Positions 9,235 through 59,732 of a DNA stretch of 64,000 bases are shown here, piece by piece (positions within the stretch are counted from its first letter, which is position 1; the number at the start of each line of letters is the position of its first letter). The position numbers and the translations under genes were made by a program. The notes below the pieces were generated by a model, which saw nothing but the letters and a program-made list of their open reading frames with translations, was not told where the DNA came from and searched no databases. This DNA is from Candidatus Falkowbacteria bacterium HGW-Falkowbacteria-1 (GTDB taxonomy: Bacteria; Patescibacteriota; Patescibacteriia; Patescibacteriales; UBA12465), in assembly GCA_002840305.1 (NCBI GenBank), contig PHAI01000003.1:70908-134907 (forward strand). Reading direction: 5' to 3'.

Positions 9235-9807
9235 TTAAGAATTATAAACTTTTTTAATTACTAAAATATTCTTCTCAACAACATCTTTTCCTTTATCAAA
9301 AAATTTTTCTTCAATTGCTGAAATAGCAGAATCGATTTTTAAAAGCCCAGGAAATTTGGCCAAAGCGCCCAGCATTGCAGTATTAACTATATTTTTTCCA
9401 AAAACTTCTAACGCTATTTTTGTAGCGTCAACTGTTAAAATATTTTCTTTTTTAAAATTAACTGGCAATTGTTTTAGTTTTTCTATTTTCAAAAATATGT
9501 TTTCAACTGATTCCTTAGAATTAAAAAAAATCTTACTACTTTCTTTCAAACCAAAAAAAACGTCTGCCTTTCCTATTAGGCTGTCATCTTGAATAATTAA
9601 TATATCAGGACTATAAACATGTTCTCTGGTTAAAATTTTCTCTTCGGAGACCCTTACAAAAGATTGAATAGGGGCCCCGCTTCTTTCTACTCCAAAATGA
9701 GGAAAAGCTTGAGATTCTTTTCCATCTTTAAAAAAGGCTATAGCCAAAATTTCAGAAGCAACCACGACTCCTTGCCCGCCCCTCCCATGAATTCTTATTT
9801 CTATCAT
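9235..9807 (-). CDS. porG: Pyruvate:ferredoxin oxidoreductase gamma subunit
   Basis: 190 aa. N-terminus IRIHGRGGQGVVVASEILA..A....G...QAFP.FG.ERSGAP is typical of POR/KOR gamma subunits. Confidence 0.88.
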   Translation of the reverse strand: MIEIRIHGRGGQGVVVASEILAIAFFKDGKESQAFPHFGVERSGAPIQSFVRVSEEKILTREHVYSPDILIIQDDSLIGKADVFFGLKESSKIFFNSKESVENIFLKIEKLKQLPVNFKKENILTVDATKIALEVFGKNIVNTAMLGALAKFPGLLKIDSAISAIEEKFFDKGKDVVEKNILVIKKVYNS

Positions 9808-9862
9808 ATTTTTTTATATTAATATTTCTATTCTTTGTTGCCTCAACTGACTAAACTTTATT

Positions 9863-9913
9863 CTCCTTTGTCATCTCGACTGAGCCATCCTGCGGATGGC
9901 GAATGGAGAGATC
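9863..9913 (+). repeat. Solo family-A palindromic repeat
   Basis: ctcctttgtcatctcgactgagccatcctgcggatggcgaatggagagatc is near-identical to the copies at 4976-5081. It lies intergenic between porG and the DsbA-like gene. Confidence 0.85.
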
Positions 9914-9921
9914 CACCAATC

Positions 9922-10695
9922 CTACTCAACCAAAAATTTATCTAAAAATTTGGAAAAAAATTCAAAAGAAACAAATCCTTCTTGAACCTTTTCGCCATTG
10001 ATAAACCAGGCGGGCGTTCCTTTTATCTCCAAAAATTGACCATCGGCTATGGATTGAATAACATAATTATAGTATTTATCACTATTTAAACAATCAGAAA
10101 ATGATTTTAAATCTGAAATCCCGGCCAAGCGAGCAACAGACGCTAAGTCATCAAGCGTAAACTGCCCTTGAAGTTCAAATAATTTATAATACATTGGCCA
10201 ATACTTATTTTGATCATTAGCGCACAAAGCTGCCGTGGCCAATGTTACTGATTCGTCACTGACAACCGCAAATTCCCTAGAAACTATCCTTATGTCTTTC
10301 CCGTATTTAACAGACAAAGAGGCAATAACATCAGACGCCTGCTTACAATAACGACAAGCAAAATCAGAAAAAATAACGATAGTAATTTCAGCATCAGGGT
10401 TGCCAATCTGAGGACTATTTTCTCCTTCAACTATTTTTAGCTTCATTGCGACAATTTCAGGGTCCTCTATTTGCTTATTCGTGCTAGAGGGTTGGTTCAA
10501 AAACAAATATTGTTCTCTAAAAGTAGGAGAAAAAATGATTTGAAAAATAAAAAAAACAAAAGCCACAGAAAAAATAGCTAAAAAATAAAGAACGGCAACA
10601 AGCAACATTCCCCACCATTTTTTATACCAATGACTTTCTCTTTTTCTTGTTTGGCCTTTTTCTCTTAAATATTCAATTCTCTCATCAAGATTCAT
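9922..10695 (-). CDS. Membrane-anchored DsbA-like thiol:disulfide oxidoreductase
   Basis: 257 aa. N-terminal TM WWGMLLVAVLYFLAIFSVAFVFFIF. Thioredoxin-fold CxxC site FSDFACRYCKQ. Confidence 0.8.
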   Translation of the reverse strand: MNLDERIEYLREKGQTRKRESHWYKKWWGMLLVAVLYFLAIFSVAFVFFIFQIIFSPTFREQYLFLNQPSSTNKQIEDPEIVAMKLKIVEGENSPQIGNPDAEITIVIFSDFACRYCKQASDVIASLSVKYGKDIRIVSREFAVVSDESVTLATAALCANDQNKYWPMYYKLFELQGQFTLDDLASVARLAGISDLKSFSDCLNSDKYYNYVIQSIADGQFLEIKGTPAWFINGEKVQEGFVSFEFFSKFLDKFLVE

Positions 10696-36185: not shown

Positions 36186-36256
36186 CTCGGGGACAGGGAC
36201 TCGAACCCCGATCGACGCCTTCAAAGGGCGCTGTCCTACCATTAGACGATCCCCGA
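36186..36256 (-). tRNA. tRNA-Gln (anticodon UUG)
   Basis: Manual cloverleaf on the minus strand. Acceptor TCGGGGA/TCCCCGA (U1-A72). D arm GTCT-AATGGTA-GGAC. Anticodon arm GCGCC-CTTTGAA-GGCGT. T arm CGGGG-TTCGAGT-CCCTG. No encoded CCA. Confidence 0.88.
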
Positions 36257-39641: not shown

Positions 39642-39714
39642 AGCCCCTTGCCAGATTCGAACTGGCGTCTACGGTTTACGATACCATTGCTTTAACCAAC
39701 TAAGCTAAAGAGGC
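39642..39714 (-). tRNA. tRNA-Thr (anticodon CGU)
   Basis: Manual cloverleaf. Acceptor GCCTCTT/AAGGGGC. D arm GCTT-AGTTGGTTA-AAGC. Anticodon loop ATCGTAA. T arm GCCAG-TTCGAAT-CTGGC. No encoded CCA. Confidence 0.85.
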
Positions 39715-41755: not shown

Positions 41756-43636
41756 TTATTTATCAAAAACTACATTTTCACCTTCTTCTATCGCTATTTC
41801 CTCCTTATTCTTGTTGTCAGAAACATTCTGAAAACTAGCAGAATCTTCTTTTTGTTTTATTTCCTTGCCCTTAAAATTTACCGGATTTAGAGACTTTAAA
41901 GCACCAAGACCAATTTCTTCAACTTCCGTTTTTTTTATTATTGGTTCTGATTTTCGTATTATTTCTTTGAGACTCTCCGTTTTATTCTCGGTTTTGCTAT
42001 TATCTTCAAACGCCGGTTTTTTTGTATTTTGTATTTCTTTTTGATTGTTCACAATGCTCTTACCCTCCTTCTTTTTTTTAAAACATTCATTACAATAAAC
42101 CGGCCTGATACCATCTGGCTTAAATTTCGTCTGTACATCACTAGCACAGGCCCAACAATAAGTAGAGTAAAGCTCTTCGTCATTACCTTTTTTACTAATA
42201 AAATTTTCTCTCTGCTGAGGCTTAAAGTTTGTATTTTTAAATTCCGAATTATTTGGTTTATTTTGACTAAAATTTTGAACATTTAATTTTGTTTCTTGAT
42301 TCTTATAAAGACCAGTACTATTTACCGTTGGTTTTTCTATCTTTTTTTCTCCATCATCATCCAAATGCCATCTCATGATTTTTTCCTCTACTATCTCTCT
42401 CTTTGTCGCATATTTTTGACGAGAGTACTCTATGACCTTCTCAACATTATCTGTCTTTTCCTCCTCTAAAAGTGGGGGGAGCCCTTTGGCAGAAAAAGGA
42501 TCAGAGGAAACACCGTCGATCATTAACTTCAAATACATTTCATACTTTGGTAAATTAACAATATCTTCTTCGGTGAAAACTGGTGTGAATTCTTTAACTA
42601 ATTCTTCGGCGTCAGCCGCTCCAACCCTAAAGACTACAATCGTTCCAACATTACCAAAAACAGCTGGCTTAACTTTTTCATCCAACTGCTCTATATATTG
42701 ATGGGCCATTATTAAATTAAGTCTATACTTTCTGGCTTCTGACAAAATATTAGCAAAACTTTCAGTAGAAAAATTTTGGAACTCATCAATATATAAATAA
42801 AAGTCGTTTCTATCTTTTTCATCAATATCTACCCTGCTCATAGCTGCTAATTGAATTTTAGTGATCATCATAGCTCCCAACAATGCTGAATTATCTTCTC
42901 CGATCCTTCCTTTGCTCATATTCATAATCAAAATCTTGCCTTCATCCATAATTTTTCTCATATCTACAGATGATTTAACCTGACCAACGATATTTCTCAT
43001 AAAGGAACTAGATAAAAACTGCCCAACTTTATTTTGAATAGGAGACACCGCCTCGGAAGCAAACTTATCAGCATAACCAGCAAATTCTTTTTCCCAAAAA
43101 GATTTTACTACCGGATCCTTAATGTTGGTAACAACTCTTTTTCTATAGTCTTTATCGGAAAGCATTCTAACTACGCCCAAAAGAGTTGAGCCTGGAAAAT
43201 CTAAAATAGCTAAAATAGCATTGCGCAAAATATACTCCAATCGAGGCCCCCAAGAATCAGCCCATAGTTTTTTAAACACTCCAATCAAGCCAGATGCTAC
43301 TAGGTGTCTTAAGTGTGGCTCAACTTGTTCAACCAAATTGAAAGCAATAGGATAATTCATGTCAGCTGGATTAAAATAGACAACATCGTTAACTCTTTCC
43401 TTTGGAATGTATTTAATAATTTTTTCCGCCAAATCACCATGAGGGTCTATAACTGCCACGCCCTTGCCAGCCCTAATATCGTCAACTATCATATTTTCTA
43501 AAACCGTTGACTTCCCCATACCGGTTTTTCCAATCAAATACATATGTCGACGACGATCGTCAACCTTAATACCAAATTTTTTCATTTGATTTCTGAAATT
43601 CGTCTGAGCAAAATAAACAACCTCATTGTTTGTCAT
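41756..43636 (-). CDS. Soluble TraD/VirD4/HerA-like P-loop ATPase with a C-terminal zinc ribbon
   Basis: 626 aa. Walker A GKTGMGKST and Walker B FYLYIDEFQ. Low-complexity K/N/E linker. C-terminal CWAC...(17)...CNEC. Confidence 0.65.
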   Translation of the reverse strand: MTNNEVVYFAQTNFRNQMKKFGIKVDDRRRHMYLIGKTGMGKSTVLENMIVDDIRAGKGVAVIDPHGDLAEKIIKYIPKERVNDVVYFNPADMNYPIAFNLVEQVEPHLRHLVASGLIGVFKKLWADSWGPRLEYILRNAILAILDFPGSTLLGVVRMLSDKDYRKRVVTNIKDPVVKSFWEKEFAGYADKFASEAVSPIQNKVGQFLSSSFMRNIVGQVKSSVDMRKIMDEGKILIMNMSKGRIGEDNSALLGAMMITKIQLAAMSRVDIDEKDRNDFYLYIDEFQNFSTESFANILSEARKYRLNLIMAHQYIEQLDEKVKPAVFGNVGTIVVFRVGAADAEELVKEFTPVFTEEDIVNLPKYEMYLKLMIDGVSSDPFSAKGLPPLLEEEKTDNVEKVIEYSRQKYATKREIVEEKIMRWHLDDDGEKKIEKPTVNSTGLYKNQETKLNVQNFSQNKPNNSEFKNTNFKPQQRENFISKKGNDEELYSTYCWACASDVQTKFKPDGIRPVYCNECFKKKKEGKSIVNNQKEIQNTKKPAFEDNSKTENKTESLKEIIRKSEPIIKKTEVEEIGLGALKSLNPVNFKGKEIKQKEDSASFQNVSDNKNKEEIAIEEGENVVFDK

Positions 43637-43652
43637 ATCTAAAAGTTTAAAA

Positions 43653-43994
43653 CTATCTTAAAAATTCCTGCAAGGCTTCTCCAGTATTTTCTATTCCGCT
43701 AGGAACACCGAACAGGTTCATAATAAATCCAAAAACATTCTTTAAAAACGGAGGAAAATATATAAAGGCTAGAAAAATCGGAACTAAAAATAAAAACAAT
43801 TTTACCCAAATCATTATTTTTTTCCAATAAATATATTTTTTTATATATTTACTTAAAATCAAAATTTCCTCACTCACCTCTAAATTTTTCTTAACTAAGG
43901 CCTCAAGAGTATCTTTTTCTGCCGAAGTTTCAACGTCACCATTTGGAGTGTTGTTCTTTAAATTATCCATATTTTTACAAACAAAAACAATCAA
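43653..43994 (-). CDS. Small membrane protein, hypothetical
   Basis: 113 aa. TM IMIWVKLFLFLVPIFLAFIYF. An alternative start MDNLKN lies at 43970. Confidence 0.45.
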   Translation of the reverse strand: MIVFVCKNMDNLKNNTPNGDVETSAEKDTLEALVKKNLEVSEEILILSKYIKKYIYWKKIMIWVKLFLFLVPIFLAFIYFPPFLKNVFGFIMNLFGVPSGIENTGEALQEFLR

Positions 43995-44050
43995 TAAATA
44001 GCGAAGTGCTACAAAAAAATTATACCAAATTAAAGCCTATAAATCAATAA

Positions 44051-45250
44051 TCACTTATTTTTTTCGTAATTAAACTGCCAAACATCAACAAACGGTGAAA
44101 CCAAAGAATTAATGTTAGATATAATAACTGATTCATCATTACCATAAAAACCATTGCCACTCCAATTGTTAGTGCCAAAAACAACAACTTGATCATCAAT
44201 TATTAATAAATGATGATGCAAAAAAGAGTTTAAATTGTTTACATTAAAATTATTTTTAATCTCTTCATTGCGATTGGTATCCGTAACGATCTCCAAATCA
44301 TTTAAATTATGTTTAATTTTCTCAGATAAAAGAAAATTAAAAGCAGATTCTGGCGAGTTATAATTAAAATCATCAGCAATAATTCTGACTTGTTTTTTTT
44401 GAGCAGCGGCCGCGATTTCAATTGCTAAGTCATTACTCGTGAAATTCCACATCATTAGCTTAATGTTGCTGTTCGACTCTCTAATTAGGTCAATCATACG
44501 CTCCTTGAGCCCTCTTTTTACCGGCTGGGGCCCAAACCAAATTTCCAAAAAACCTTCTGGATATTCAATTAGAGCCGCAAATGGATTAGAATTTAAGACT
44601 AATTTTTTTAAACTATGGTGACCATTCGCTATCTTTTTAAACTCCTCCCCAAAAATCATTATAATTTCTGGCCGAGTGGTCTCCAATAAAAAACATGGGT
44701 CATATTTTTCTTGAATGTAAGTAAAATTATATGACCCAAAAAATAATTTAGCCCCAGAATATCCTTGATCAATAAGTAGGAACTTATGATGCATCGAACC
44801 ATCATCCGATGGAATGTCTAAGCGTTTGATATTGGTGGGCAAGTCTTTAAAAATTTGATCATGTTCGATTTGTCTTTTGTCACTAAAAACCAGATTAACG
44901 ACCACACCTCTTTCTGTAGCCCTGTAAAGAGCGTCTCTAATATTGGTATTATTCATAGAATATACGGCCAATTCAATAGTATTTTGAGCCTCATCTATAG
45001 CTGAAATAATAATATCAGAAAAAATAGTTGTTCCCATTTCATTATTAAAATAAAGTTGACCGGAAAAATTGTCTTCAATTTTTATGTACCTGTTTGGCTC
45101 CGGACTATAAGCGCTATCACTATAAAACATAAAACTAAAAACATTTACAGACAATGAGACGACTAAAGCTAACAATATTACCAATGTCAAAAAAACCAAT
45201 ATATATATTTTATTATTAGACTTCGCTTGAAAAATTCTCATCCATTTCAT
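44051..45250 (-). CDS. Membrane-anchored phospholipase D-family protein with two HKD-type domains
   Basis: 399 aa. N-terminal anchor IYILVFLTLVILLALVVSLSV. First motif HHKFLLID....GSYNFT (HxKx4D...GSxN). Second motif is degenerate, HHHLLIID....GTNNWS (K replaced by H). Its start overlaps the upstream gene by 35 nt. Confidence 0.75.
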   Translation of the reverse strand: MKWMRIFQAKSNNKIYILVFLTLVILLALVVSLSVNVFSFMFYSDSAYSPEPNRYIKIEDNFSGQLYFNNEMGTTIFSDIIISAIDEAQNTIELAVYSMNNTNIRDALYRATERGVVVNLVFSDKRQIEHDQIFKDLPTNIKRLDIPSDDGSMHHKFLLIDQGYSGAKLFFGSYNFTYIQEKYDPCFLLETTRPEIIMIFGEEFKKIANGHHSLKKLVLNSNPFAALIEYPEGFLEIWFGPQPVKRGLKERMIDLIRESNSNIKLMMWNFTSNDLAIEIAAAAQKKQVRIIADDFNYNSPESAFNFLLSEKIKHNLNDLEIVTDTNRNEEIKNNFNVNNLNSFLHHHLLIIDDQVVVFGTNNWSGNGFYGNDESVIISNINSLVSPFVDVWQFNYEKNK

Positions 45251-46934
45251 ATTTTTTTTGATAATTTAAATAATCATTATTATCTCTAGAGAAAATTATA
45301 ATCGTGGACCGAGGTAATTTATCATCTAAAATCTTCAAAATTTCTATAATTTCCTCGTATTTTAAATCTATCCAAGCGTTATCAATTATAATAAAACATG
45401 GTTCATTGACTAAACAATGCAAAGCGTAAAGAGAAAAGGCTGACAATTTACTAGACAGGGCCATTTTGGCGCTAGAGTTAAAATTATTATTATGACTAAC
45501 CAAGTTGGCAATTTTTTTGTTAATTTCCAGAATTTTCAAGGCTCTCTCGATTTGAGAAAAGTCAGTTGTTTCCTTGTCTTTACCCAATATAAATTCCATT
45601 AAGCTTTTTTCTGAAAAAAAATTAAAATCAAAATAACAAATTCCTTGTCCAAATTTTTGCCAAAAAGAATAATCTATACGATGATTATCTATTTTAACTT
45701 TTACAGCCTTGGGCGTGTAAGCTCCCAATCCAGCCAACAATTCAGCCAAAGCTGTTTTCCCGATCGCCCGACTACTGTAGAATAAATAACGACCACCTCT
45801 GGCAAGAGATATTTTAAAATGACTATAATAAACCCCTTCTTTAAAAAGTTTAAATTTACGACTAGTAAAGTTAACAGTTTGACCAAAAACCAAAGTTTTA
45901 TCTCGTCGCACAACTGAGCCATTTTTCAAAATTGTTAAAAACATCCCGAGGCGAGCGGGATATAAATAAAGTCCAACCCGCAAGCTTTCGTTTATGGCCC
46001 GCGAAAAATAAATTAACAAGAATATAAGCAAAAATCTTGTTTCTGGCGTAATTAATTTCAACCAAGAAAAGAAGCCTGTCGAAAAAAAATTTATAAAAAC
46101 TGACAATAAAAGTAAAACAGCAAATATCACTTTAGCGCCCATTTTCATCCATAAATCACGTCTTACTCGAAAAAATGAATCAAAATCTACAAGACGATCG
46201 AACTGATTTAAAACAGATTTTTCCTGATTAAAGCTTTTTAAAAAATGTTTTTCAGTTGTGTTAATGTCTATTTGTTTAATTATCTGAGAATAAAAAGTTA
46301 CCTCCTGAGAGATATACCTCCTGGACACGAAATAGGCCGATAACATTATAATAGCCGATAATATTAAATTAGCCGATAAAACCAGCGCCCAATTTAAGCC
46401 ACTCCAATAAGAAATAAAAACTGCTATCGTTACATAGATTATCCATCTCAAAGAGCCAAAAAAAGAGTTAGACACGCCCATGGAAGTCAGCGGCAATTGA
46501 TAGGATATTTTCGCAATTAAATCAGTCTTTTTTTTCAAATTCATTTTTACTAAAGCTTGGTCAAGATAAGCTTTAAACAATCTACGACGAATACCATTAC
46601 TTAGCCAAACGCCTAAAGTTTTTTCTTGACGAATAGAAAAATAAGAATTGATAAAAAACAAAATCAAAAAAATTATTAAAAACTGCCAAAAAAATGGAGC
46701 TAACCACAATTTTTGTTGATTTGATATTTGATAACGACTGAAGACTATTAACAATGTTTCAATAACACCTTGGACAAATAATAGCACTATCAAAATTAGA
46801 ATAAACCAAAGATGTTGTTTAAAAAAATTTAAAAGATATTTGTAGTGCCAATCACTCAATTTTAATTGTTGATATTTACTACGAATAAATTTTACTTTTC
46901 TAATTAATCCGAATTGTCTCTTAATCTCGTTCAT
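45216..46934 (-). CDS. ABC-exporter-like protein (6-TM domain plus a degenerate nucleotide-binding domain)
   Basis: 572 aa. TM domain spans roughly residues 40-310. NBD has Walker A SSRAIGKT (Lys kept), signature LSSKL instead of LSGGQ, Walker B CFIIID followed by N instead of the catalytic E, SRD in place of the H-loop, and no Q-loop Gln. Its start overlaps the RT stop by 14 nt. Confidence 0.7.
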   Translation of the reverse strand: MNEIKRQFGLIRKVKFIRSKYQQLKLSDWHYKYLLNFFKQHLWFILILIVLLFVQGVIETLLIVFSRYQISNQQKLWLAPFFWQFLIIFLILFFINSYFSIRQEKTLGVWLSNGIRRRLFKAYLDQALVKMNLKKKTDLIAKISYQLPLTSMGVSNSFFGSLRWIIYVTIAVFISYWSGLNWALVLSANLILSAIIMLSAYFVSRRYISQEVTFYSQIIKQIDINTTEKHFLKSFNQEKSVLNQFDRLVDFDSFFRVRRDLWMKMGAKVIFAVLLLLSVFINFFSTGFFSWLKLITPETRFLLIFLLIYFSRAINESLRVGLYLYPARLGMFLTILKNGSVVRRDKTLVFGQTVNFTSRKFKLFKEGVYYSHFKISLARGGRYLFYSSRAIGKTALAELLAGLGAYTPKAVKVKIDNHRIDYSFWQKFGQGICYFDFNFFSEKSLMEFILGKDKETTDFSQIERALKILEINKKIANLVSHNNNFNSSAKMALSSKLSAFSLYALHCLVNEPCFIIIDNAWIDLKYEEIIEILKILDDKLPRSTIIIFSRDNNDYLNYQKKYEMDENFSSEV

Positions 46935-48126
46935 AATGAAATTTCTTGTAATAATTATAAAGCGATTTTATCCCCAATTCCCTAGTTCTTTCTTCGAGAA
47001 GCCGGCGATTACGAGGAGAATAACGTTGATAAAAAAATTTAGTTAAAATTCGCCAAAAACTTTCTGACAATTTTTTAATTTGTTCTGAATTGTTAACCAA
47101 TGGCTTGTCCTTTATAATTCTTTGAAATTTAAAATTATAATTATTTTTTGGCTCTAACATTATTTTTTTTAATAATTGATCTTTTTTGTTATTTGATGAA
47201 TTTTTATATGTTAAAATTTCTTTCCAGCCTAACTCTGTTTTCTTAACAAATGACTCCTCTAAACTAATCAGTCCATTATTAAAATTATACCCCAAAAAGG
47301 AAAAACTAGCGCGAGCTGGACCAATATACAACTTTTGCTCATTAATTGCTAGTTTTTTTACTAATAACTCAATTTTTAAATTACCCATAATTTCGCCTAA
47401 CTTCTCTTTTTTCTTATCAAAAAAAGCAATGTCATCACCAACGCGAATATAAAAAGGTACTATATTTTGATATTTAAAATCTAAATCACTTAAATATAGA
47501 TTGGCGAACATAGCAATAAGCGGGACTCCCTGAACCAAGCCCTTGCTCGGTGTCTCTATAGCTCCTTGACGATAAACTTTATTAAAAATAAATAAGTTTA
47601 AAACATCCAAAACGTCTTGATCAAAAAAAATACCCTTAAGTTGAGTAAACAATATTGATTTATCAATTAAATCAGAGTAATTCTCTAAATCTAAAATCAG
47701 GGCATAATCACTTAAAAAAGAGCGACGATACCGTCGACCAAAATTTTTAGCAGCTAAATAGGGCGATTTACCTGGACGATAAGAAAAAAGTCGGTCAGAA
47801 AGCCGCTTTTCAATTTCAGGTGAGAGGATTTGAAAAATGGCCTGAGCCTTAATTCTCTCTTTAAGATTATATATAAAAATTTCACGAAATTTTTTTGGAT
47901 TACTTTTTTTAGGTATTTTAATCGACAGAGCAGGACTAATTTCTATTTTCTGGACCAGCTCCTTTTGGGCTATGTTAATCAATTTCTGTGGATCTAAGTC
48001 ATAATCTTTTAACAAAAGATTATCTAGCCCATGGTATTTAAAATTTTTTCGATCGGCTGCAAATTGATCAATGATTTTTAGATAGGCTAATTTAAAATTA
48101 GCGTCACTGATTATTTTCTCAAACAT
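46921..48126 (-). CDS. Stand-alone reverse transcriptase (group-II-intron-like/retron-like RT domain, no maturase or endonuclease domain)
   Basis: 401 aa. RT motifs: (1) IPKKSNPKKFREI; (2a) FSYRPGKS; (3) ILDLENYSDLI; (4) LVQGVPLIAMFANLYL; (5) YIRVGDDIAFF, with the catalytic DD encoded at 47431-47436; (7) FSFLGYNF. Helical C-terminal tail of about 120 aa. Confidence 0.85.
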   Translation of the reverse strand: MFEKIISDANFKLAYLKIIDQFAADRKNFKYHGLDNLLLKDYDLDPQKLINIAQKELVQKIEISPALSIKIPKKSNPKKFREIFIYNLKERIKAQAIFQILSPEIEKRLSDRLFSYRPGKSPYLAAKNFGRRYRRSFLSDYALILDLENYSDLIDKSILFTQLKGIFFDQDVLDVLNLFIFNKVYRQGAIETPSKGLVQGVPLIAMFANLYLSDLDFKYQNIVPFYIRVGDDIAFFDKKKEKLGEIMGNLKIELLVKKLAINEQKLYIGPARASFSFLGYNFNNGLISLEESFVKKTELGWKEILTYKNSSNNKKDQLLKKIMLEPKNNYNFKFQRIIKDKPLVNNSEQIKKLSESFWRILTKFFYQRYSPRNRRLLEERTRELGIKSLYNYYKKFHYERD

Positions 48127-48269
48127 ATTTAAAAAATTATCCCCAAGATATTTAGTAGAGCTCCACTAAATATTGATTAAATCCAACGAGGCACCTGAGT
48201 GCTCTATATTATTTAACTTTGATCACCCGATATTAACGGGAAAAAAGAAAAAAGACAAATAATTGTTAA
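48127..48269 (-). promoter_or_regulatory. Hairpin-rich leader upstream of the RT gene; candidate promoter and/or RT-associated ncRNA
   Basis: Three local hairpins: 48148-48173 (9-bp stem ATATTTAGT/ACTAAATAT), 48188-48204 and 48226-48240. A GGGGA Shine-Dalgarno-like element precedes the ATG. Function not established. Confidence 0.3.
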
Positions 48270-48293
48270 TATCCCAAAAGGGTTTTGAGGATA
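48270..48293 (-). terminator. Possible terminator hairpin after the pilin-like gene
   Basis: Minus strand TATCC-T-CAAAA-CCC-TTTTG-GGATA, a 10-bp stem with one bulge, followed by a T-rich tract. Confidence 0.4.
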
Positions 48294-48309
48294 ATTCATT
48301 TAAAATAAC

Positions 48310-49341
48310 TTAAAAACAAGAAATCATATTAGCGTTGGAAGCTTCAGTGTCATAACGACAATTAGCACTAACGCTATTTAAAAAATGGTCGCTCTGGAGT
48401 TCATTGGTAGCTGATCCTTCTAGACGGTATTTTATGCGAAAATAATCATTGCCGTCATCATCAAAATTATTTACTATAAACATTTTATAAGGATACCAGC
48501 CCGTAGTCCACGTACCAATTGGCAAATAATTATTTAATGGCATATTTCTTAAATAAACCGTACCACTGTCACAAGCGGTCCCGGCCGACACGCTAGAGTC
48601 ATTAATATCTGCCGATAACTTAATGCACCAATTGCTTTGAGTCGGACATGGCGTGCTCGATCCATAAGTGCCTTGAATATATGCATGTTCTCCTTGTCTG
48701 ACTGGTTCGCTGGTTACCGTTGAACAATTGGTAGACCGTGTGTCACTACCAACCAAAGAATTTCCATTATAATAAAAAATATTATACGAAACTCCTGGGT
48801 CAACAAGATAATAACCGTTAGCGTCGTACATTGTTTTCATAGCGGCCTCAATAGCCGAAATATCCGCCAATCTTTGGCTGTTACGTAATTGAAGTGGACT
48901 AGCACATAAATCCTTACTGTTTATTTCTTGACTCAACTCTGCCAAAGGAGAATAAACTGCCGGTCGATTATAGATGGTTTTACAAATCATATAACCAGTA
49001 CCATTCTCTGAATTAACCTTAGGATCTGTTGGTATAGATGACAGATAAATAGTTTCATCGGTTAAGACTGATAAGTCGGCCAGACCGGTACAATCAATAG
49101 CGTCGGTACGACAAATTTCCAGCGGCATTGTATCTATTGCGGCTGGTAACTCTCCATTGTCTATAAGATATTGATAGGCGGCTTTTTGAAGAGTATTAAC
49201 ATCTGCATAACGTCGGGAATTTCTAGTTTGAGCTAGTTGACGAGCAGGATTAATAGCTAAAATTACAATACTGGCCAAAATAACAAGCAGCGCAACGGCC
49301 AACAAGATCTCTATTAACGTGAAAGCCTTTTTATTAAACAT
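48310..49341 (-). CDS. Type IV pilin-like protein with a large Cys-containing C-terminal domain
   Basis: Class III signal and N-terminal helix MFNKKA/FTLIEILLAVALLVILASIVILAI. The start is moved to M15 of the track ORF. Confidence 0.75.
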   Translation of the reverse strand: MFNKKAFTLIEILLAVALLVILASIVILAINPARQLAQTRNSRRYADVNTLQKAAYQYLIDNGELPAAIDTMPLEICRTDAIDCTGLADLSVLTDETIYLSSIPTDPKVNSENGTGYMICKTIYNRPAVYSPLAELSQEINSKDLCASPLQLRNSQRLADISAIEAAMKTMYDANGYYLVDPGVSYNIFYYNGNSLVGSDTRSTNCSTVTSEPVRQGEHAYIQGTYGSSTPCPTQSNWCIKLSADINDSSVSAGTACDSGTVYLRNMPLNNYLPIGTWTTGWYPYKMFIVNNFDDDGNDYFRIKYRLEGSATNELQSDHFLNSVSANCRYDTEASNANMISCF

Positions 49342-49433
49342 ATTTTGGATTTGAAAATTCAAAAAATAAGAATTAAACTCCAATGGCGAAATTTTGTATC
49401 TTTACTGTATCACTTTATCACCCTTTATTCAAA

Positions 49434-50159
49434 TCAAACTCTGAGCAAGCACTCCTTGACGGCCCTAGAACCAATTTTAACCATTTCTTTCATCTCGCTA
49501 TCAGTAAGCGGATCTAAGTTCTTGAAATTATTATTGACCAAGTCAATGTCCGACTTAAATTTTTGCAAATACCAAAGATTGGCCCCCATAATATCTTTTG
49601 ACATTTTCAAAATGTCTTCTTTGTCCAAAAGACCAGGAACAACAGTAGTTCTAAATTCATAGGGCAAGCTTCCTTCTATTAATATTTTAACACTCTTTTT
49701 TATTTTTTCTATGTTAGTCTTAACATTGACCACCTTCTCATAACTATCAAATGGGGCCTTTAAGTCCATAGCTATATAATCCAACAAACCGCTCGTAATC
49801 AAGTCCAAAACTTTATCTGGGTTTGTTCCGTTTGTATCTAATTTTATCTTATATCCAAGATTCTTAACTTTAATAATAAAATCCTTGAGATCACCCTGCA
49901 AAGTCGGTTCTCCCCCAGAAATAACTATACCGTCAAGCTTTCCAATTCTATCCTTTAAAAAAAGAAAAAAGTCCTCCTCCGGGATCAGAGAAGAACTTTC
50001 ATCTTTTATATTCATCAATTCGCTTTCGCCAGAGGCGAAAACTAGCATGGGATTATAACAAAAATGACAACGGAAATTACAAGATTTAGTAAAAATAACA
50101 GCCGATAAATACCCAGGAAAATCAATCAAGCTAAGTTTTTCTATTCCACCAATAGTCAT
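49434..50159 (-). CDS. nrdG: Anaerobic ribonucleoside-triphosphate reductase activating protein (radical SAM)
   Basis: 241 aa. CNFRCHFCYN (CxxxCxxC) and GGEPTLQ motifs. Located downstream of nrdD. Confidence 0.9.
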   Translation of the reverse strand: MTIGGIEKLSLIDFPGYLSAVIFTKSCNFRCHFCYNPMLVFASGESELMNIKDESSSLIPEEDFFLFLKDRIGKLDGIVISGGEPTLQGDLKDFIIKVKNLGYKIKLDTNGTNPDKVLDLITSGLLDYIAMDLKAPFDSYEKVVNVKTNIEKIKKSVKILIEGSLPYEFRTTVVPGLLDKEDILKMSKDIMGANLWYLQKFKSDIDLVNNNFKNLDPLTDSEMKEMVKIGSRAVKECLLRV

Positions 50160-59658: not shown

Positions 59659-59732
59659 GGGCCCTTAGCTCAGCTGGTTAGAGCACCTGCTTTGCAAGCA
59701 GGGGGTCAAGGGTTCGAATCCCTTAGGGTCCA
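59659..59732 (+). tRNA. tRNA-Ala (anticodon UGC)
   Basis: GGGCCCT acceptor with the G3:U70 identity pair. Anticodon arm CCTGC-TTTGCAA-GCAGG. T arm AAGGG-TTCGAAT-CCCTT. No encoded CCA. Confidence 0.93.

Follow-up and report, generated by a model that had tools for sequence, protein, structure and literature searches.

The minus strand of the window (the whole 64,000-nucleotide stretch analysed here, from contig PHAI01000003.1 of Candidatus Falkowbacteria bacterium HGW-Falkowbacteria-1) encodes a reverse transcriptase (RT), an ABC-exporter-like protein and a PLD-superfamily protein in overlapping succession, preceded by a structured non-coding RNA (ncRNA):

48131-48300, minus strand: structured ncRNA, ~170 nt, comprising P1, P1a, pseudoknot P2, P3, P4, P4b, a single-stranded motif and P5
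46921-48126, minus strand: RT gene, stand-alone group-II-intron-like reverse transcriptase, 401 aa
45216-46934, minus strand: ABC-like gene, ABC-exporter-fold membrane protein, 572 aa
44051-45250, minus strand: PLD gene, membrane-anchored two-lobed PLD-superfamily phosphodiesterase, 399 aa

An open-reading-frame check of the window returned the three genes precisely at the coordinates and lengths given in an earlier note on this DNA, with the same overlaps of 14 nt (RT and ABC-like genes) and 35 nt (ABC-like and PLD genes). That note set aside the 183 nt upstream of the RT gene (48127-48309) as non-coding; they in fact hold a conserved, covarying and pseudoknotted ncRNA, which is the fourth component of the cassette and mechanistically the most telling.

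The ABC-like gene directly follows the RT in 41/41 related loci, and in 39 of them the PLD gene comes next, with strand and gene order unchanged; in the remaining two the contig ends inside the ABC gene. This arrangement is kept down to 34% RT identity, the flanking genes are unrelated between the 41 genome loci compared and the divergence of the three proteins is correlated across loci (Spearman 0.91-0.93). A remote ABC-like family member (E 5e-20) still has RT and PLD as its flanking genes. The proposal that the three genes form a functional unit, and are not chance neighbours, is therefore borne out. The distribution is sparse and patchy, covering 41 species-level genomes, and this genome carries a second, divergent cassette with its own ncRNA, the paralogues being only 47% identical. 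The four parts are co-inherited and make up a self-contained module found in CPR/Patescibacteria only.

Judged by its sequence, the RT is group-II-intron-like and catalytically intact. Pfam returned RVT_1 only, and the score against NCBIfam group_II_RT_mat was 109 bits (cut-off 300). Group II RTs are its nearest solved and curated relatives: the top matches in a PDB profile search were GsI-IIC RT (1e-30), other group II RTs (1e-28) and Cas6-RT-Cas1 (1e-26), and PADLOC gave generic RT (2e-34), UG26 (4e-30) and UG17 (7e-22). The RT motifs quoted in the earlier note are all present and conserved in 28 homologues, among which D146, Y226, R228, G230, D231 and D232 never vary and Y150, the steric-gate residue, is retained. 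Motif C deviates from YxDD and aligns to RYADD of GsI-IIC. The placement of the RT outside group II introns, DGRs and the known retron and DRT clades also holds: Rfam intron RNA families gave no match even at E<=10, Pfam found no maturase or endonuclease domain, a search for TR/VR-type repeats found none and the retron and DRT1-9 HMM scores were only weak. The catalytic and anchoring features of the three proteins are as follows:

47431-47445, minus strand: RT motif C, R-V-G-D-D (aa 228-232), replaces YxDD
45753-45761, minus strand: ABC-like Walker A G-K-T (aa 392-394), K393 invariant, G392 nearly invariant
45378-45383, minus strand: ABC-like Walker B Asp518 and Asn519, Asn519 in the catalytic Glu position
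45146-45202, minus strand: PLD N-terminal transmembrane anchor (aa 17-35), model helix at residues 13-43
44768-44791, minus strand: PLD HKD motif 1, H154-x-K156-x4-D161, invariant
44195-44218, minus strand: PLD variant motif 2, H345-x-H347-x4-D352 (Lys to His), invariant in 24 homologues

The ABC-like protein is a homodimer-type exporter-fold membrane protein. Its AF2 model (pLDDT 81) shows a full type IV exporter fold, with six long transmembrane helices and a degenerate nucleotide-binding domain, and Foldseek aligned it over its full length with PglK, MsbA, TmrAB and TAP (1e-14). The window copy had no Pfam match, and the family profile reaches PDB ABC exporters at 1e-10 only. The family is small and discrete (89 representatives at E<=1e-30 among 1.84 billion), with a gap from 1e-20 to 1e-11 before canonical ABCs. 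Loss of the catalytic Glu, Q-loop Gln, H-loop His and LSGGQ signature beside a retained Walker A Lys, as first noted for this copy, is family-wide and no local decay: the homologues have no Q-loop Gln, H-loop His or LSGGQ, and their D518 never varies, while at least 90% of sequences share N519. The nucleotide-binding domain probably binds NTP without hydrolysing it. MsbA orthology was considered and rejected (17 bits; cut-off 602).

The PLD protein is a bilobed phosphodiesterase of the Nuc/Zucchini/PLD3 kind. Its matches were PLDc_2 twice in Pfam, NucT in NCBIfam and DrmC in PADLOC; the PDB profile search gave Zucchini/MitoPLD (1e-15), NucT (9e-15) and Nuc (2e-13). Foldseek with the AF2 model (pLDDT 91) gave the bacterial PLD 7e0m (4e-21) and the PLD3/PLD4 5' exonucleases (1e-18), so that the protein is nuclease-like by both profile and fold. 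Cardiolipin-synthase orthology was rejected (12 bits; cut-off 290). The description of one canonical and one degenerate HKD motif stands for motif 1, HxK(x)4D...GSxN, which is canonical and invariant; motif 2, HxH(x)4D...GTNN, is likewise invariant and is therefore a conserved K-to-H variant and not a random degeneration. Across 24 homologues the K/R residues next to the anchor number 138 N-terminally and 50 C-terminally. By the positive-inside rule only, the anchor is predicted to be N-in (type II), which would place the catalytic domain outside. Both partners are membrane proteins, as had been proposed, on the evidence of transmembrane helices or anchor in the individual protein models, Foldseek matches and flank charges. 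The membrane disruption once suggested as an output gives way to a tighter constraint, that of a nuclease-like enzyme predicted to face outwards.

The ncRNA spans ~170-230 nt across the family and is closed by a long basal stem. Folded alone, the window copy reaches -46.1 kcal/mol (z -4.63); it had no Rfam family match, and the search model CM R1 matched 48124-48327 on the minus strand (137.5 bits, E 1e-36), its sole match in the window. The elements are:

48285-48297, minus strand: P1 5' strand, basal closing stem, pairs with 48134-48146
48273-48282, minus strand: P1a hairpin (CCC-UUUU-GGG), after a conserved AAAAC
48266-48272, minus strand: P2 5' strand (AUAUUAA), pseudoknot, pairs with the P4b loop 48230-48236
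48208-48263, minus strand: P3 (48256-48263 with 48208-48215), encloses P4 and P4b
48226-48240, minus strand: P4b hairpin (CCCG-UUAAUAU-CGGG), 7-nt loop is the P2 3' strand
48176-48191, minus strand: conserved single-stranded motif CCUCGUUGGAUUUAAU, family consensus CUCAUUG..UUUAAU
48148-48173, minus strand: P5 hairpin, 10 pairs
48134-48146, minus strand: P1 3' strand, purine-rich, Shine-Dalgarno-like (UUGGGGAUAAU), ends ~8 nt before the RT ATG
48326-48353, minus strand: promoter-like site from a consensus scan (ATGACA, 16-nt spacer, TAATAT), just upstream of the ncRNA

The structure is under selection. In alignment A7, 83.9% of cells are paired, versus ~42% when the partners are slid; 51/57 pairs show compensatory change and 0/500 shuffles reached the observed pairing and covariation values. 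Compensatory changes affect 15/15 pairs of P1 (93.9% of cells paired), 6 of the 7 pairs of P2 (89%), 6 of the 8 pairs of P3 (75%) and 8 pairs of P5 (86.5%). P4b, predicted by RNAalifold on an independent sub-alignment with 4/4 pairs compensatory, has 91.7% of cells paired in A7, and P1a has ~90%, with a CG to UA exchange in 9 sequences; P1a, P3 and P4b are absent from the search model, yet supported in the alignment. The sequence of the single-stranded motif is kept in both major clades of the alignment, and CCUCGUUGGAUUUAAU is a candidate RT-binding or template segment. The Shine-Dalgarno resemblance of the P1 3' strand was judged directly from the alignments, and some of the conservation could therefore be regulatory.

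The CM finds one ncRNA for each cassette, in an upstream position on the same strand, and does so at loci outside the seed as well. Among 26 motif matches in metagenomes, 7 were true CM matches and all 7 lay ~100 nt upstream of a family RT; indeed, every genuine copy found sits upstream of such an RT. The RNA is probably independent and more than a mere leader, because terminator-like hairpins separate it from the RT in L022 and L028, it lies ~2 kb upstream with two pilin genes between in L002, and L041 has two copies in tandem. In the most divergent clade (L033, L035-L037 and L040) CM R1 made no detection; the upstream region there is strongly structured, with a basal stem. The promoter-like site in the window lies inside the 3' end of the pilin gene, and such a consensus match alone is weak in AT-rich DNA; a TATAAT-like box lies ~25-30 nt upstream of P1 in many loci, and L022 has a TG-extended promoter-like site in the equivalent place.

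The flanks of 38 loci gave no defence-island signal. They hold pilins, cupredoxins, sigma factors, helicases and housekeeping genes, and their PADLOC matches are merely to generic ATPases or helicases. The sensor/effector defence logic proposed earlier is thus an analogy only, given these flanks and an RT carried by only 1 of 2.9 million viral contigs. In 9 loci, drawn from different clades, pilin-like genes adjoin the cassette, and in L002 they are within the operon itself; some loci have a TraD/HerA-like DNA-translocase gene and a PilB-like gene nearby. Pilin adjacency (7/120 flanking proteins) is only a mild enrichment, because CPR genomes contain many pilin genes.

On our best reading, the cassette represents a new ncRNA-RT system, similar to retrons and DRTs, that has a pair of membrane effectors, and its role may be in defence or in nucleic-acid handling at the envelope. 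The module would run from its own promoter through ncRNA, RT and ABC-like protein to PLD. By analogy with retrons, DRT2, DRT9 and DRT10, the RT would bind its cognate upstream ncRNA and copy part of it into cDNA. The ABC-like protein would sense the state of the RT-RNA-cDNA particle through its ATPase-dead nucleotide-binding domains in the cytoplasm. It would serve as a conformational switch or conduit and not as a pump, and would control the PLD hydrolase outside the membrane much as FtsEX controls extracellular hydrolases. The most likely role would be anti-phage or anti-mobile-element, working by abortive infection and aimed at the envelope or at nucleic acid located there. We regard this full reading, an accessory conflict system leading from ncRNA-RT particle to ABC-like switch to outer PLD, as about evenly balanced between right and wrong. 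The lack of a defence-island signal around the loci speaks against it, as does the failure of CM R1 in the most divergent clade, and a nuclease that faces outwards would be an unusual effector for abortive infection, since phage DNA would not be accessible to it there.

That outward orientation would suit a device for handling nucleic acid that spans the envelope of episymbiotic CPR cells and has no part in defence. RT-made single-stranded DNA might be threaded out through the ATPase-dead ABC-like protein as a conduit, and an external enzyme resembling a PLD 5' exonuclease might trim it or set it free, to serve as DNA on the surface or outside the cell or in interaction with the host; or the external nuclease and ABC-like protein might act in nucleic-acid uptake or salvage beside type IV pili. 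The likeness of the PLD to NucT, a transformation-associated nuclease, and to PLD3/4, which are ssDNA/RNA 5' exonucleases, favours this, as do the pilin-like, TraD/HerA-like and PilB-like neighbours and the absent defence context. However, an ABC domain without its catalytic Glu could not power transport, the pilin enrichment is mild, and a sparse, patchy distribution with two divergent paralogous cassettes in one genome suits an accessory or conflict role better than core uptake; we consider the idea unlikely. Slightly more doubtful is that the upstream RNA is a cis-regulatory leader only, with P1 sequestering the RT Shine-Dalgarno and the RT using another template or none. Such a leader might be a riboswitch, or else an operator through which the RT regulates itself, as with DIVa of group II introns, where the start region of LtrA lies. 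The RT is group-II-like, the window has no terminator between ncRNA and RT, and in the window clade the P1 3' strand is GGGGGUGAU-like, ~10 nt before the ATG, with a partner that mimics an anti-Shine-Dalgarno. Yet this likeness is weaker in the distant clade, the RT start in L022, L028 and L025 is set apart from the RNA by terminator-like hairpins or long spacers, and the remote RNA of L002 and tandem copies of L041 fit a leader poorly; moreover, wherever a domesticated RT with a conserved ncRNA beside it has been characterised, that ncRNA is the template (PMC9226505; 10.64898/2026.04.29.721553). Leader and template roles are not exclusive.

Very improbable is a degenerate group II intron or other mobile retroelement carrying the ABC-like and PLD genes as cargo, for all that group II RTs are the closest relatives and that the cassette occupies differing genomic positions, twice in this genome. 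No intron RNA or maturase or endonuclease domain was detected in the Rfam and Pfam searches, the ABC-like gene overlaps the RT stop and so leaves no space for intron domains V and VI, paralogues at 47% identity exclude recent transposition, and the RT is nearly absent from viral contigs. An orphan RT beside housekeeping MsbA-like and cardiolipin-synthase-like genes has a negligible chance of being correct. The JGI names ('ABC-type multidrug transport system' and 'cardiolipin synthase-like enzyme') and the short gene overlaps common in this genome point that way, but the synteny amid unrelated flanks already refutes chance adjacency; scores far below the MsbA and cardiolipin synthase cut-offs, the discreteness of the ABC-like family and its family-wide loss of catalytic motifs leave no housekeeping orthology.

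We found no description of this gene combination in the literature, which supports the earlier note, where it was not recognised among retron types, DRT1-9 or AbiA/AbiK/Abi-P2. For the preferred reading, a new ncRNA-RT system with a membrane effector pair, two known systems offer precedents. In DRT10/UG17 the RT is accompanied by an ncRNA that has a basal stem and by a transmembrane SLATT effector (bioRxiv 10.64898/2026.04.29.721553); type I-A retrons pair their RT and ncRNA with a nuclease and an ATPase of the ABC/SMC type (PMC11974896, PMC12819146).

The three open reading frames that the earlier note had described, an RT gene followed by genes for an ABC-like and a PLD protein, lie exactly where it placed them, all on the minus strand, and the gene overlaps of 14 nt and 35 nt and the 183 nt upstream of the RT that it gave are also correct. 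Those 183 nt, set down there simply as non-coding DNA, hold a conserved structured RNA (ncRNA), a fourth component of the cassette that the note missed. The whole is ~4.2 kb in size, runs in the same direction as the neighbouring genes and is of ordinary composition.

Components of the cassette in the window
48124–48327, minus strand: ncRNA, match to covariance model R1 (137.5 bits; the sole match in the window)
46921–48126, minus strand: RT, 401 amino acids, annotated CVU82_03705
45216–46934, minus strand: ABC-like protein, 572 amino acids
44051–45250, minus strand: PLD protein, 399 amino acids

We scanned an RT alignment against GTDB r232 (one genome per species) and found 41 loci with a full-length family RT, at identities of 34–69%; beneath these there is a sharp drop to unrelated RTs that match over partial lengths at ≤34% identity. 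Next to the RT, in all 41 loci, comes the ABC-like gene in the same orientation. The PLD gene comes next in 39, and the remaining 2 contigs stop inside the ABC-like gene. Junctions between the cassette genes overlap or almost touch in nearly all loci. Conservation of flanking genes is limited to the closest relatives, and the identities of RT, ABC-like and PLD proteins to the window copies are strongly correlated (Spearman 0.91–0.93). Synteny, differing flanks and correlated divergence thus bear out the proposal that the genes form a unit, and the module consists of four co-inherited parts.

The genome from which the window derives carries a second, divergent cassette on the same 568-kb contig, with an RT that is 47% identical; its neighbours encode L32, NusB, RNase III, a PilB-like ATPase and an MBL-fold protein. 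Another metagenome-assembled genome also has two cassettes (loci L008 and L038).

Second cassette in the same genome
L081:5796–10076 (record ~217.5–230.8 kb): ncRNA (69 bits), RT (protein P0078), ABC-like protein (566 amino acids) and PLD protein (403 amino acids)

The host range of the module is CPR/Patescibacteria alone. Record titles name Falkowbacteria, Magasanikbacteria, Parcubacteria, Saccharibacteria and Peribacteria. Many cassette contigs are titled ‘uncultured Gammaproteobacteria’ (L001, L002, L005, L009, L011–L013 and others), one (L039) bears the title Flavobacteriaceae, and for one protein (P0240) the source is given as Sphaerochaetaceae; as their gene content is CPR-like, such titles are probably default or wrong bin labels. 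We found no fourth protein common to all loci. A transmembrane (TM) protein of ~196 amino acids, which has an internal repeat and no Pfam match, adjoins the cassette in one clade only and may be a clade-specific fourth protein. Its gene follows the PLD gene in L025 (5877–6464), with equivalents in L026, L028, L029, L031, L032 and L041, and instead lies upstream of the cassette in L027 and L038.

In nearly all loci a non-coding stretch of 180–350 nt precedes the RT, which is uncommon in genomes as compact as these, and the sequences are recognisably related and covary across loci. RNAalifold predicted a 15-bp basal stem (P1), an 8-bp helix (P2) and a 10-bp hairpin (P5). Covariance model R1, built from 20 sequences, finds one copy per cassette on the RT strand, including at many loci outside the seed and in the paralogous cassette of the window genome; with the exception of one cassette, the copies end at or just before the RT start. 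For pair counts we used an alignment of 32 sequences, with three helices added and P2 written as a pseudoknot. In this alignment, 83.9% of cells form a pair, compared with ~42% when partners are slid, compensatory changes occur in 51 of 57 pairs, and the observed values were reached by none of 500 shuffles. RNAalifold on MAFFT alignments recovered P1, P2, P5 and P4b and missed P1a, P3 and P4; these three were placed by eye before their pairs were counted. P4 is weak (64% of cells paired); P1a, P3 and P4b are paired in 75–92% of cells, and this support is not circular because these helices are absent from the search model. The 7-nt loop of the independently predicted P4b forms the 3′ strand of P2, giving an H-type pseudoknot. 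The window RNA alone folds at −46.1 kcal/mol (z −4.6). Sequence as well as structure is kept in places: a single-stranded motif, CUCAUUG..UUUAAU, is shared by both major ncRNA clades, and a conserved AAAAC follows directly after the 5′ strand of P1. The RNA has no Rfam match. Its structure is under selection.

A search from the RNA side led back to the same genes. A pseudoknot-specific DNA pattern run over 241 million metagenome records hit 26 places, 7 of which are true covariance-model matches, each followed by a family RT ~100 nt downstream; 19 lack both a model match and an RT and were set aside as chance. Model R1 did not detect the ncRNA in the most divergent clade (L033, L035–L037 and L040) or in L028; their upstream regions are strongly structured all the same, with a basal closing stem in that clade, and that of L028 looks homologous by eye.

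The ncRNA could be a leader that controls translation of the RT. The 3′ strand of P1 (48134–48146, minus strand) resembles an extended Shine–Dalgarno sequence (GGGGGUGAU in relatives) and lies ~10 nt before the RT ATG in the clade of the window, and its 5′ partner strand mimics the 16S anti-Shine–Dalgarno. A regulatory role is therefore possible, in which the RNA fold may control RT translation. Several loci argue that the RNA is more than a translational operator: terminator-like hairpins separate it from the RT in L022 and L028, a 90-nt spacer does so in L025, in L002 it lies ~2 kb upstream of the RT with two pilin genes between, and in L041 two tandem, diverged copies precede a single RT (9372–9660 and 9676–9989). 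Many loci also have a −10-like box ~25–30 nt upstream of P1.

RVT_1 is the only Pfam domain of the RT (E ≤ 0.1). The catalytic aspartates and the steric-gate tyrosine (DLxNYS) are invariant or nearly so, and the active site is intact. Motif C (47431–47445, minus strand) is an invariant R-V/I/L-G-D-D, giving RVGDD instead of YxDD. Its GDD recalls RNA-dependent RNA polymerases; the steric-gate tyrosine is nonetheless kept. The closest curated or solved relatives are group II intron RTs (GsI-IIC, 1e-30) and Cas6–RT–Cas1. Profile matches in the PDB reach 1e-10 for DRT9 and DRT2, 5e-9 for G2L4 (palm only) and 2e-6 to 5e-5 for retron RTs (palm only). The top PADLOC models are generic RT, CRISPR RT and UG26. 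UG26 is the best group-specific model (103 bits, 4e-30, covering 40–392 of 398 profile positions, including the C-terminal region) and UG17 scores 76 bits (7e-22), values that are similar to or under those of the group II and CRISPR-RT models. All scores outside the family fall far under those within it, in which pairs of 34% identity reach E 1e-64.

These affinities raise the established RT classes as alternatives. Kinship with group II intron RTs would suit a group II intron, and the matching family model, TIGR04416, does align, but scores 109 bits (cut-off, 300) and covers the RT part only. Neither Intron_gpII nor group-II-D1D4 matches the window at gathering score or 43500–49500 at E ≤ 10, and the ABC-like gene overlaps the RT stop. 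We reject an intron on the grounds that ribozyme RNA and a maturase (X/GIIM) domain are both missing, as the earlier note had argued. It had also argued against a diversity-generating retroelement (DGR), and the repeat search agrees: 36000–58000 contains no TR/VR pair, only AT-rich matches of ~70% identity, and on this basis a DGR is rejected. A 328-residue RT chain, 8ub7, which we take to be a DGR RT, matches at 1e-10, against 1e-30 for group II RTs. DGR RTs have SQ in motif 4 and an Avd accessory gene alongside; motif 4 here is QGVPL, and there is no Avd-like ORF next to the RT. As for a retron, in which a1/a2 repeats close the upstream RNA, a closing stem does lie upstream of the RT. The AAAAC after its 5′ strand has no conserved branching G, and the sole retron-type PADLOC match is RT_II-A at 2.5e-6; the weak RT similarity and the missing G lead us to reject retron membership. 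UG17 RTs usually have SLATT as a partner and UG26 RTs either none or a Vsr-like endonuclease (PMC9226505); here the RT is invariably accompanied by the ABC-like and PLD genes. Operationally, G2L RTs are those nearest to group II intron RTs that lack intron RNA (PMC8632793), and by this definition the RT is G2L-type.

The AF2 model of the ABC-like protein (pLDDT 81) has the six-helix TM domain and nucleotide-binding fold of a type IV exporter. It superposes over its full length on PglK, MsbA, TmrAB and TAP, and Foldseek aligns it with the first three over ~570 columns (E 1e-14). The degeneracy of the nucleotide-binding domain that had been noted in the window copy extends to all 27 family members. 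Walker A and the Walker B Asp are all that remains of the motifs: Asn stands in place of the catalytic Glu, and the Q-loop Gln, LSGGQ and the H-loop His are lost. We infer that the protein binds nucleotide without hydrolysing it. An exhaustive profile search of 1.84 billion representatives returned a small, discrete family: 89 proteins match with E ≤ 1e-30 and 102 with E ≤ 1e-10, and it is only near 1e-9 that canonical ABC exporters start. The remotest member examined (E 5e-20) is preceded by the C terminus of a family RT and followed by a PLDc_2 gene, and the next protein examined lower in the list (E 2e-11), an ordinary ABC transporter, lacks a PLD gene beside it. A housekeeping MsbA orthologue is rejected on the basis of the TIGR02203 score (17 bits; cut-off, 602), synteny and the discreteness of the family.

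The AF2 model of the PLD protein (pLDDT 91) consists of one TM helix and a bilobed body. Its sequence profile is nearest the nucleases Zucchini/MitoPLD, NucT and Nuc, and its fold is nearest a bacterial PLD and the 5′ exonucleases PLD3 and PLD4. The first HKD motif is canonical, as had been read; the second, which had been called degenerate, is an invariant variant, HxH(x)4D..GTNN. Among 24 homologues, Lys and Arg residues flanking the N-terminal helix number 138 on the N side and 50 on the C side, which predicts an N-in orientation with the catalytic domain outside. We thus predict a nuclease-type protein that is membrane-anchored and faces outward. A cardiolipin synthase orthologue is rejected (TIGR04265, 12 bits against a cut-off of 290; synteny).

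The 120 flanking proteins of 38 loci include pilins (7), cupredoxin-domain proteins (6), DEAD-box helicases, ECF sigma factors, NUDIX proteins and MacAB-like ABC systems. PADLOC gave generic P-loop/ATPase or helicase matches only, and no enrichment of defence genes was found among these proteins; the flank content thus carries no defence-island signal. A phage-borne element was considered and rejected: only one viral contig in IMG/VR carries the RT, at its end. Type IV pilin-like genes with an N_methyl motif adjoin the cassette in 9 loci of different clades; the cassette may be functionally linked to pili or competence, or the proximity may be due to chance, since CPR genomes are rich in pilins.

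Genes near the cassette
48310–49383, minus strand: pilin-like; others at L002:6785–9989 and in L003, L021, L024, L036, L037 and L040
49434–52592, minus strand, upstream of the pilin gene: NrdG-like (241 amino acids) and NrdD-like (691 amino acids) genes, by eye
43653–43994, minus strand, 56 nt downstream of PLD: 113-amino-acid ORF with a C-terminal TM segment
41756–43636, minus strand: TraD/VirD4/HerA-like P-loop ATPase
36186–36256 and 39642–39714, minus strand: tRNA genes
59659–59732, plus strand: tRNA gene

The anaerobic ribonucleotide reductase genes are ordinary housekeeping context. The 113-amino-acid ORF has a promoter-like site at 44019–44047, matches no family and is not kept beside the cassette at other loci. 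The P-loop ATPase has a C-terminal CxxC-x17-CxxC treble-clef zinc finger, a long low-complexity tail and weak matches to CedD and ‘mad8’; similar genes occur near the cassette in ~7 related loci. The nearest tRNA is 4.3 kb downstream of PLD, and nothing between it and the cassette points to an integrated element.

By analogy with all characterised domesticated RTs that have a conserved adjacent ncRNA, of which DRT10/UG17 is closest, the RT would copy part of the ncRNA. A dimer of the ABC-like protein could then act as a switch or conduit that couples a cytoplasmic ribonucleoprotein to the external hydrolase. We favour a role in conflict or abortive infection, given the sparse and patchy distribution of the module, its paralogues and its variable location. 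A non-immune role in nucleic-acid handling nevertheless stays seriously in play, in view of the nuclease predicted to face outward, the neighbouring pilins and flanks without a defence context. One specific form of it, which we think rather improbable, is a new type of trans-envelope machine in which DNA copied by the RT from a dedicated RNA, or a signal from this DNA, crosses the ATPase-dead ABC scaffold and reaches a PLD3-like exonuclease outside the cell; the DNA would then be secreted, displayed at the surface or used as a signal by CPR bacteria in their host-dependent lifestyle. If the output does lie on the outer side of the membrane, this would be a new coupling of reverse transcription to the cell envelope. 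The immune systems and surface biology of CPR/Patescibacteria are, to our knowledge, experimentally almost unexplored. As the cassette is compact and defined to the nucleotide, with obvious catalytic residues, it is directly synthesisable and testable.

Among known systems, DRT10/UG17 (formerly G2L3) shares the three-part arrangement: a structured ncRNA closed by a basal stem, an RT of ~400 amino acids without fused domains, and a membrane effector encoded by overlapping genes. DRT10 comprises an independently expressed 143-nt ncRNA, a SLATT transmembrane effector and the RT (10.64898/2026.04.29.721553). The cassette, by contrast, pairs its RT with ABC-exporter-fold and PLD proteins in the order ncRNA–RT–effectors; its RT scores far under DRT10/UG17 membership, its ncRNA has no detectable similarity and its hosts are CPR only. 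Type I-A retrons (Ec78/Ec83-like) combine an ncRNA, an RT, the ABC/SMC-type ATPase PtuA and the HNH nuclease PtuB (PMC11974896, PMC12819146). The likeness here is one of logic: an upstream closing-stem ncRNA, an RT, an ABC-superfamily NTPase and a nuclease. The RT clades are distant (1e-6 in the PDB), AAAAC without a conserved branching G follows the 5′ stem strand, the cassette ATPase is membrane-embedded and, from its motifs, apparently catalytically dead, the nuclease is PLD-type and predicted to face outward, and PADLOC finds neither PtuA nor PtuB in the cassette. G2L RTs such as G2L4 share the proximity to group II intron RTs without intron RNA, whereas the match to G2L4 structures covers only the palm, motif C is RVGDD in the cassette, and neither ABC-like/PLD partners nor a cognate ncRNA are described for G2L groups. 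For UG26, a class 2 UG/Abi RT, the 103 bits of the cassette RT are well below the scores of same-group members; UG26 RTs stand alone or, in 9 of 35 cases, beside a Vsr/YcjD-like endonuclease, with no ABC-like or PLD partner described (PMC9226505).

The effectors have relatives of their own. The PLD protein resembles PLD3/PLD4, Zucchini/MitoPLD, NucT and Nuc in its single N-terminal TM anchor and PLD catalytic body, and differs in having two fused Nuc-like lobes and HxH rather than HxK in the second motif. PLD3 and PLD4 have type II topology and a domain in the lumen; Zucchini has its anchor in the outer mitochondrial membrane. The ABC-like protein shares the full-length fold of MsbA, PglK and TmrAB but has lost all catalytic motifs family-wide. 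FtsEX, from which we take the idea of an ABC protein regulating an extracellular hydrolase without transport, has a type VII fold and an active ATPase; the cassette protein differs in its type IV fold and its missing catalytic motifs.

Literature searches for RTs with PLD, ABC or CPR returned no description of an RT with ABC-like and PLD partners, nor of this ncRNA. Retrons, DRT2, DRT9 and DRT10 are each a domesticated RT with a cognate ncRNA that revealed unexpected biochemistry. The module adds a new RT lineage, unusual for the RVGDD in its active site, and a new family of pseudoknotted RNA, and would be the first in which such an RT is paired with a protein of ABC-exporter fold and a PLD nuclease that faces outward. 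There is a real chance that it is something more unusual than a domesticated RT with ncRNA and effectors. We conclude that it is of that known kind in its overall design, and new in its RT clade, RNA family, effector pair and topology.
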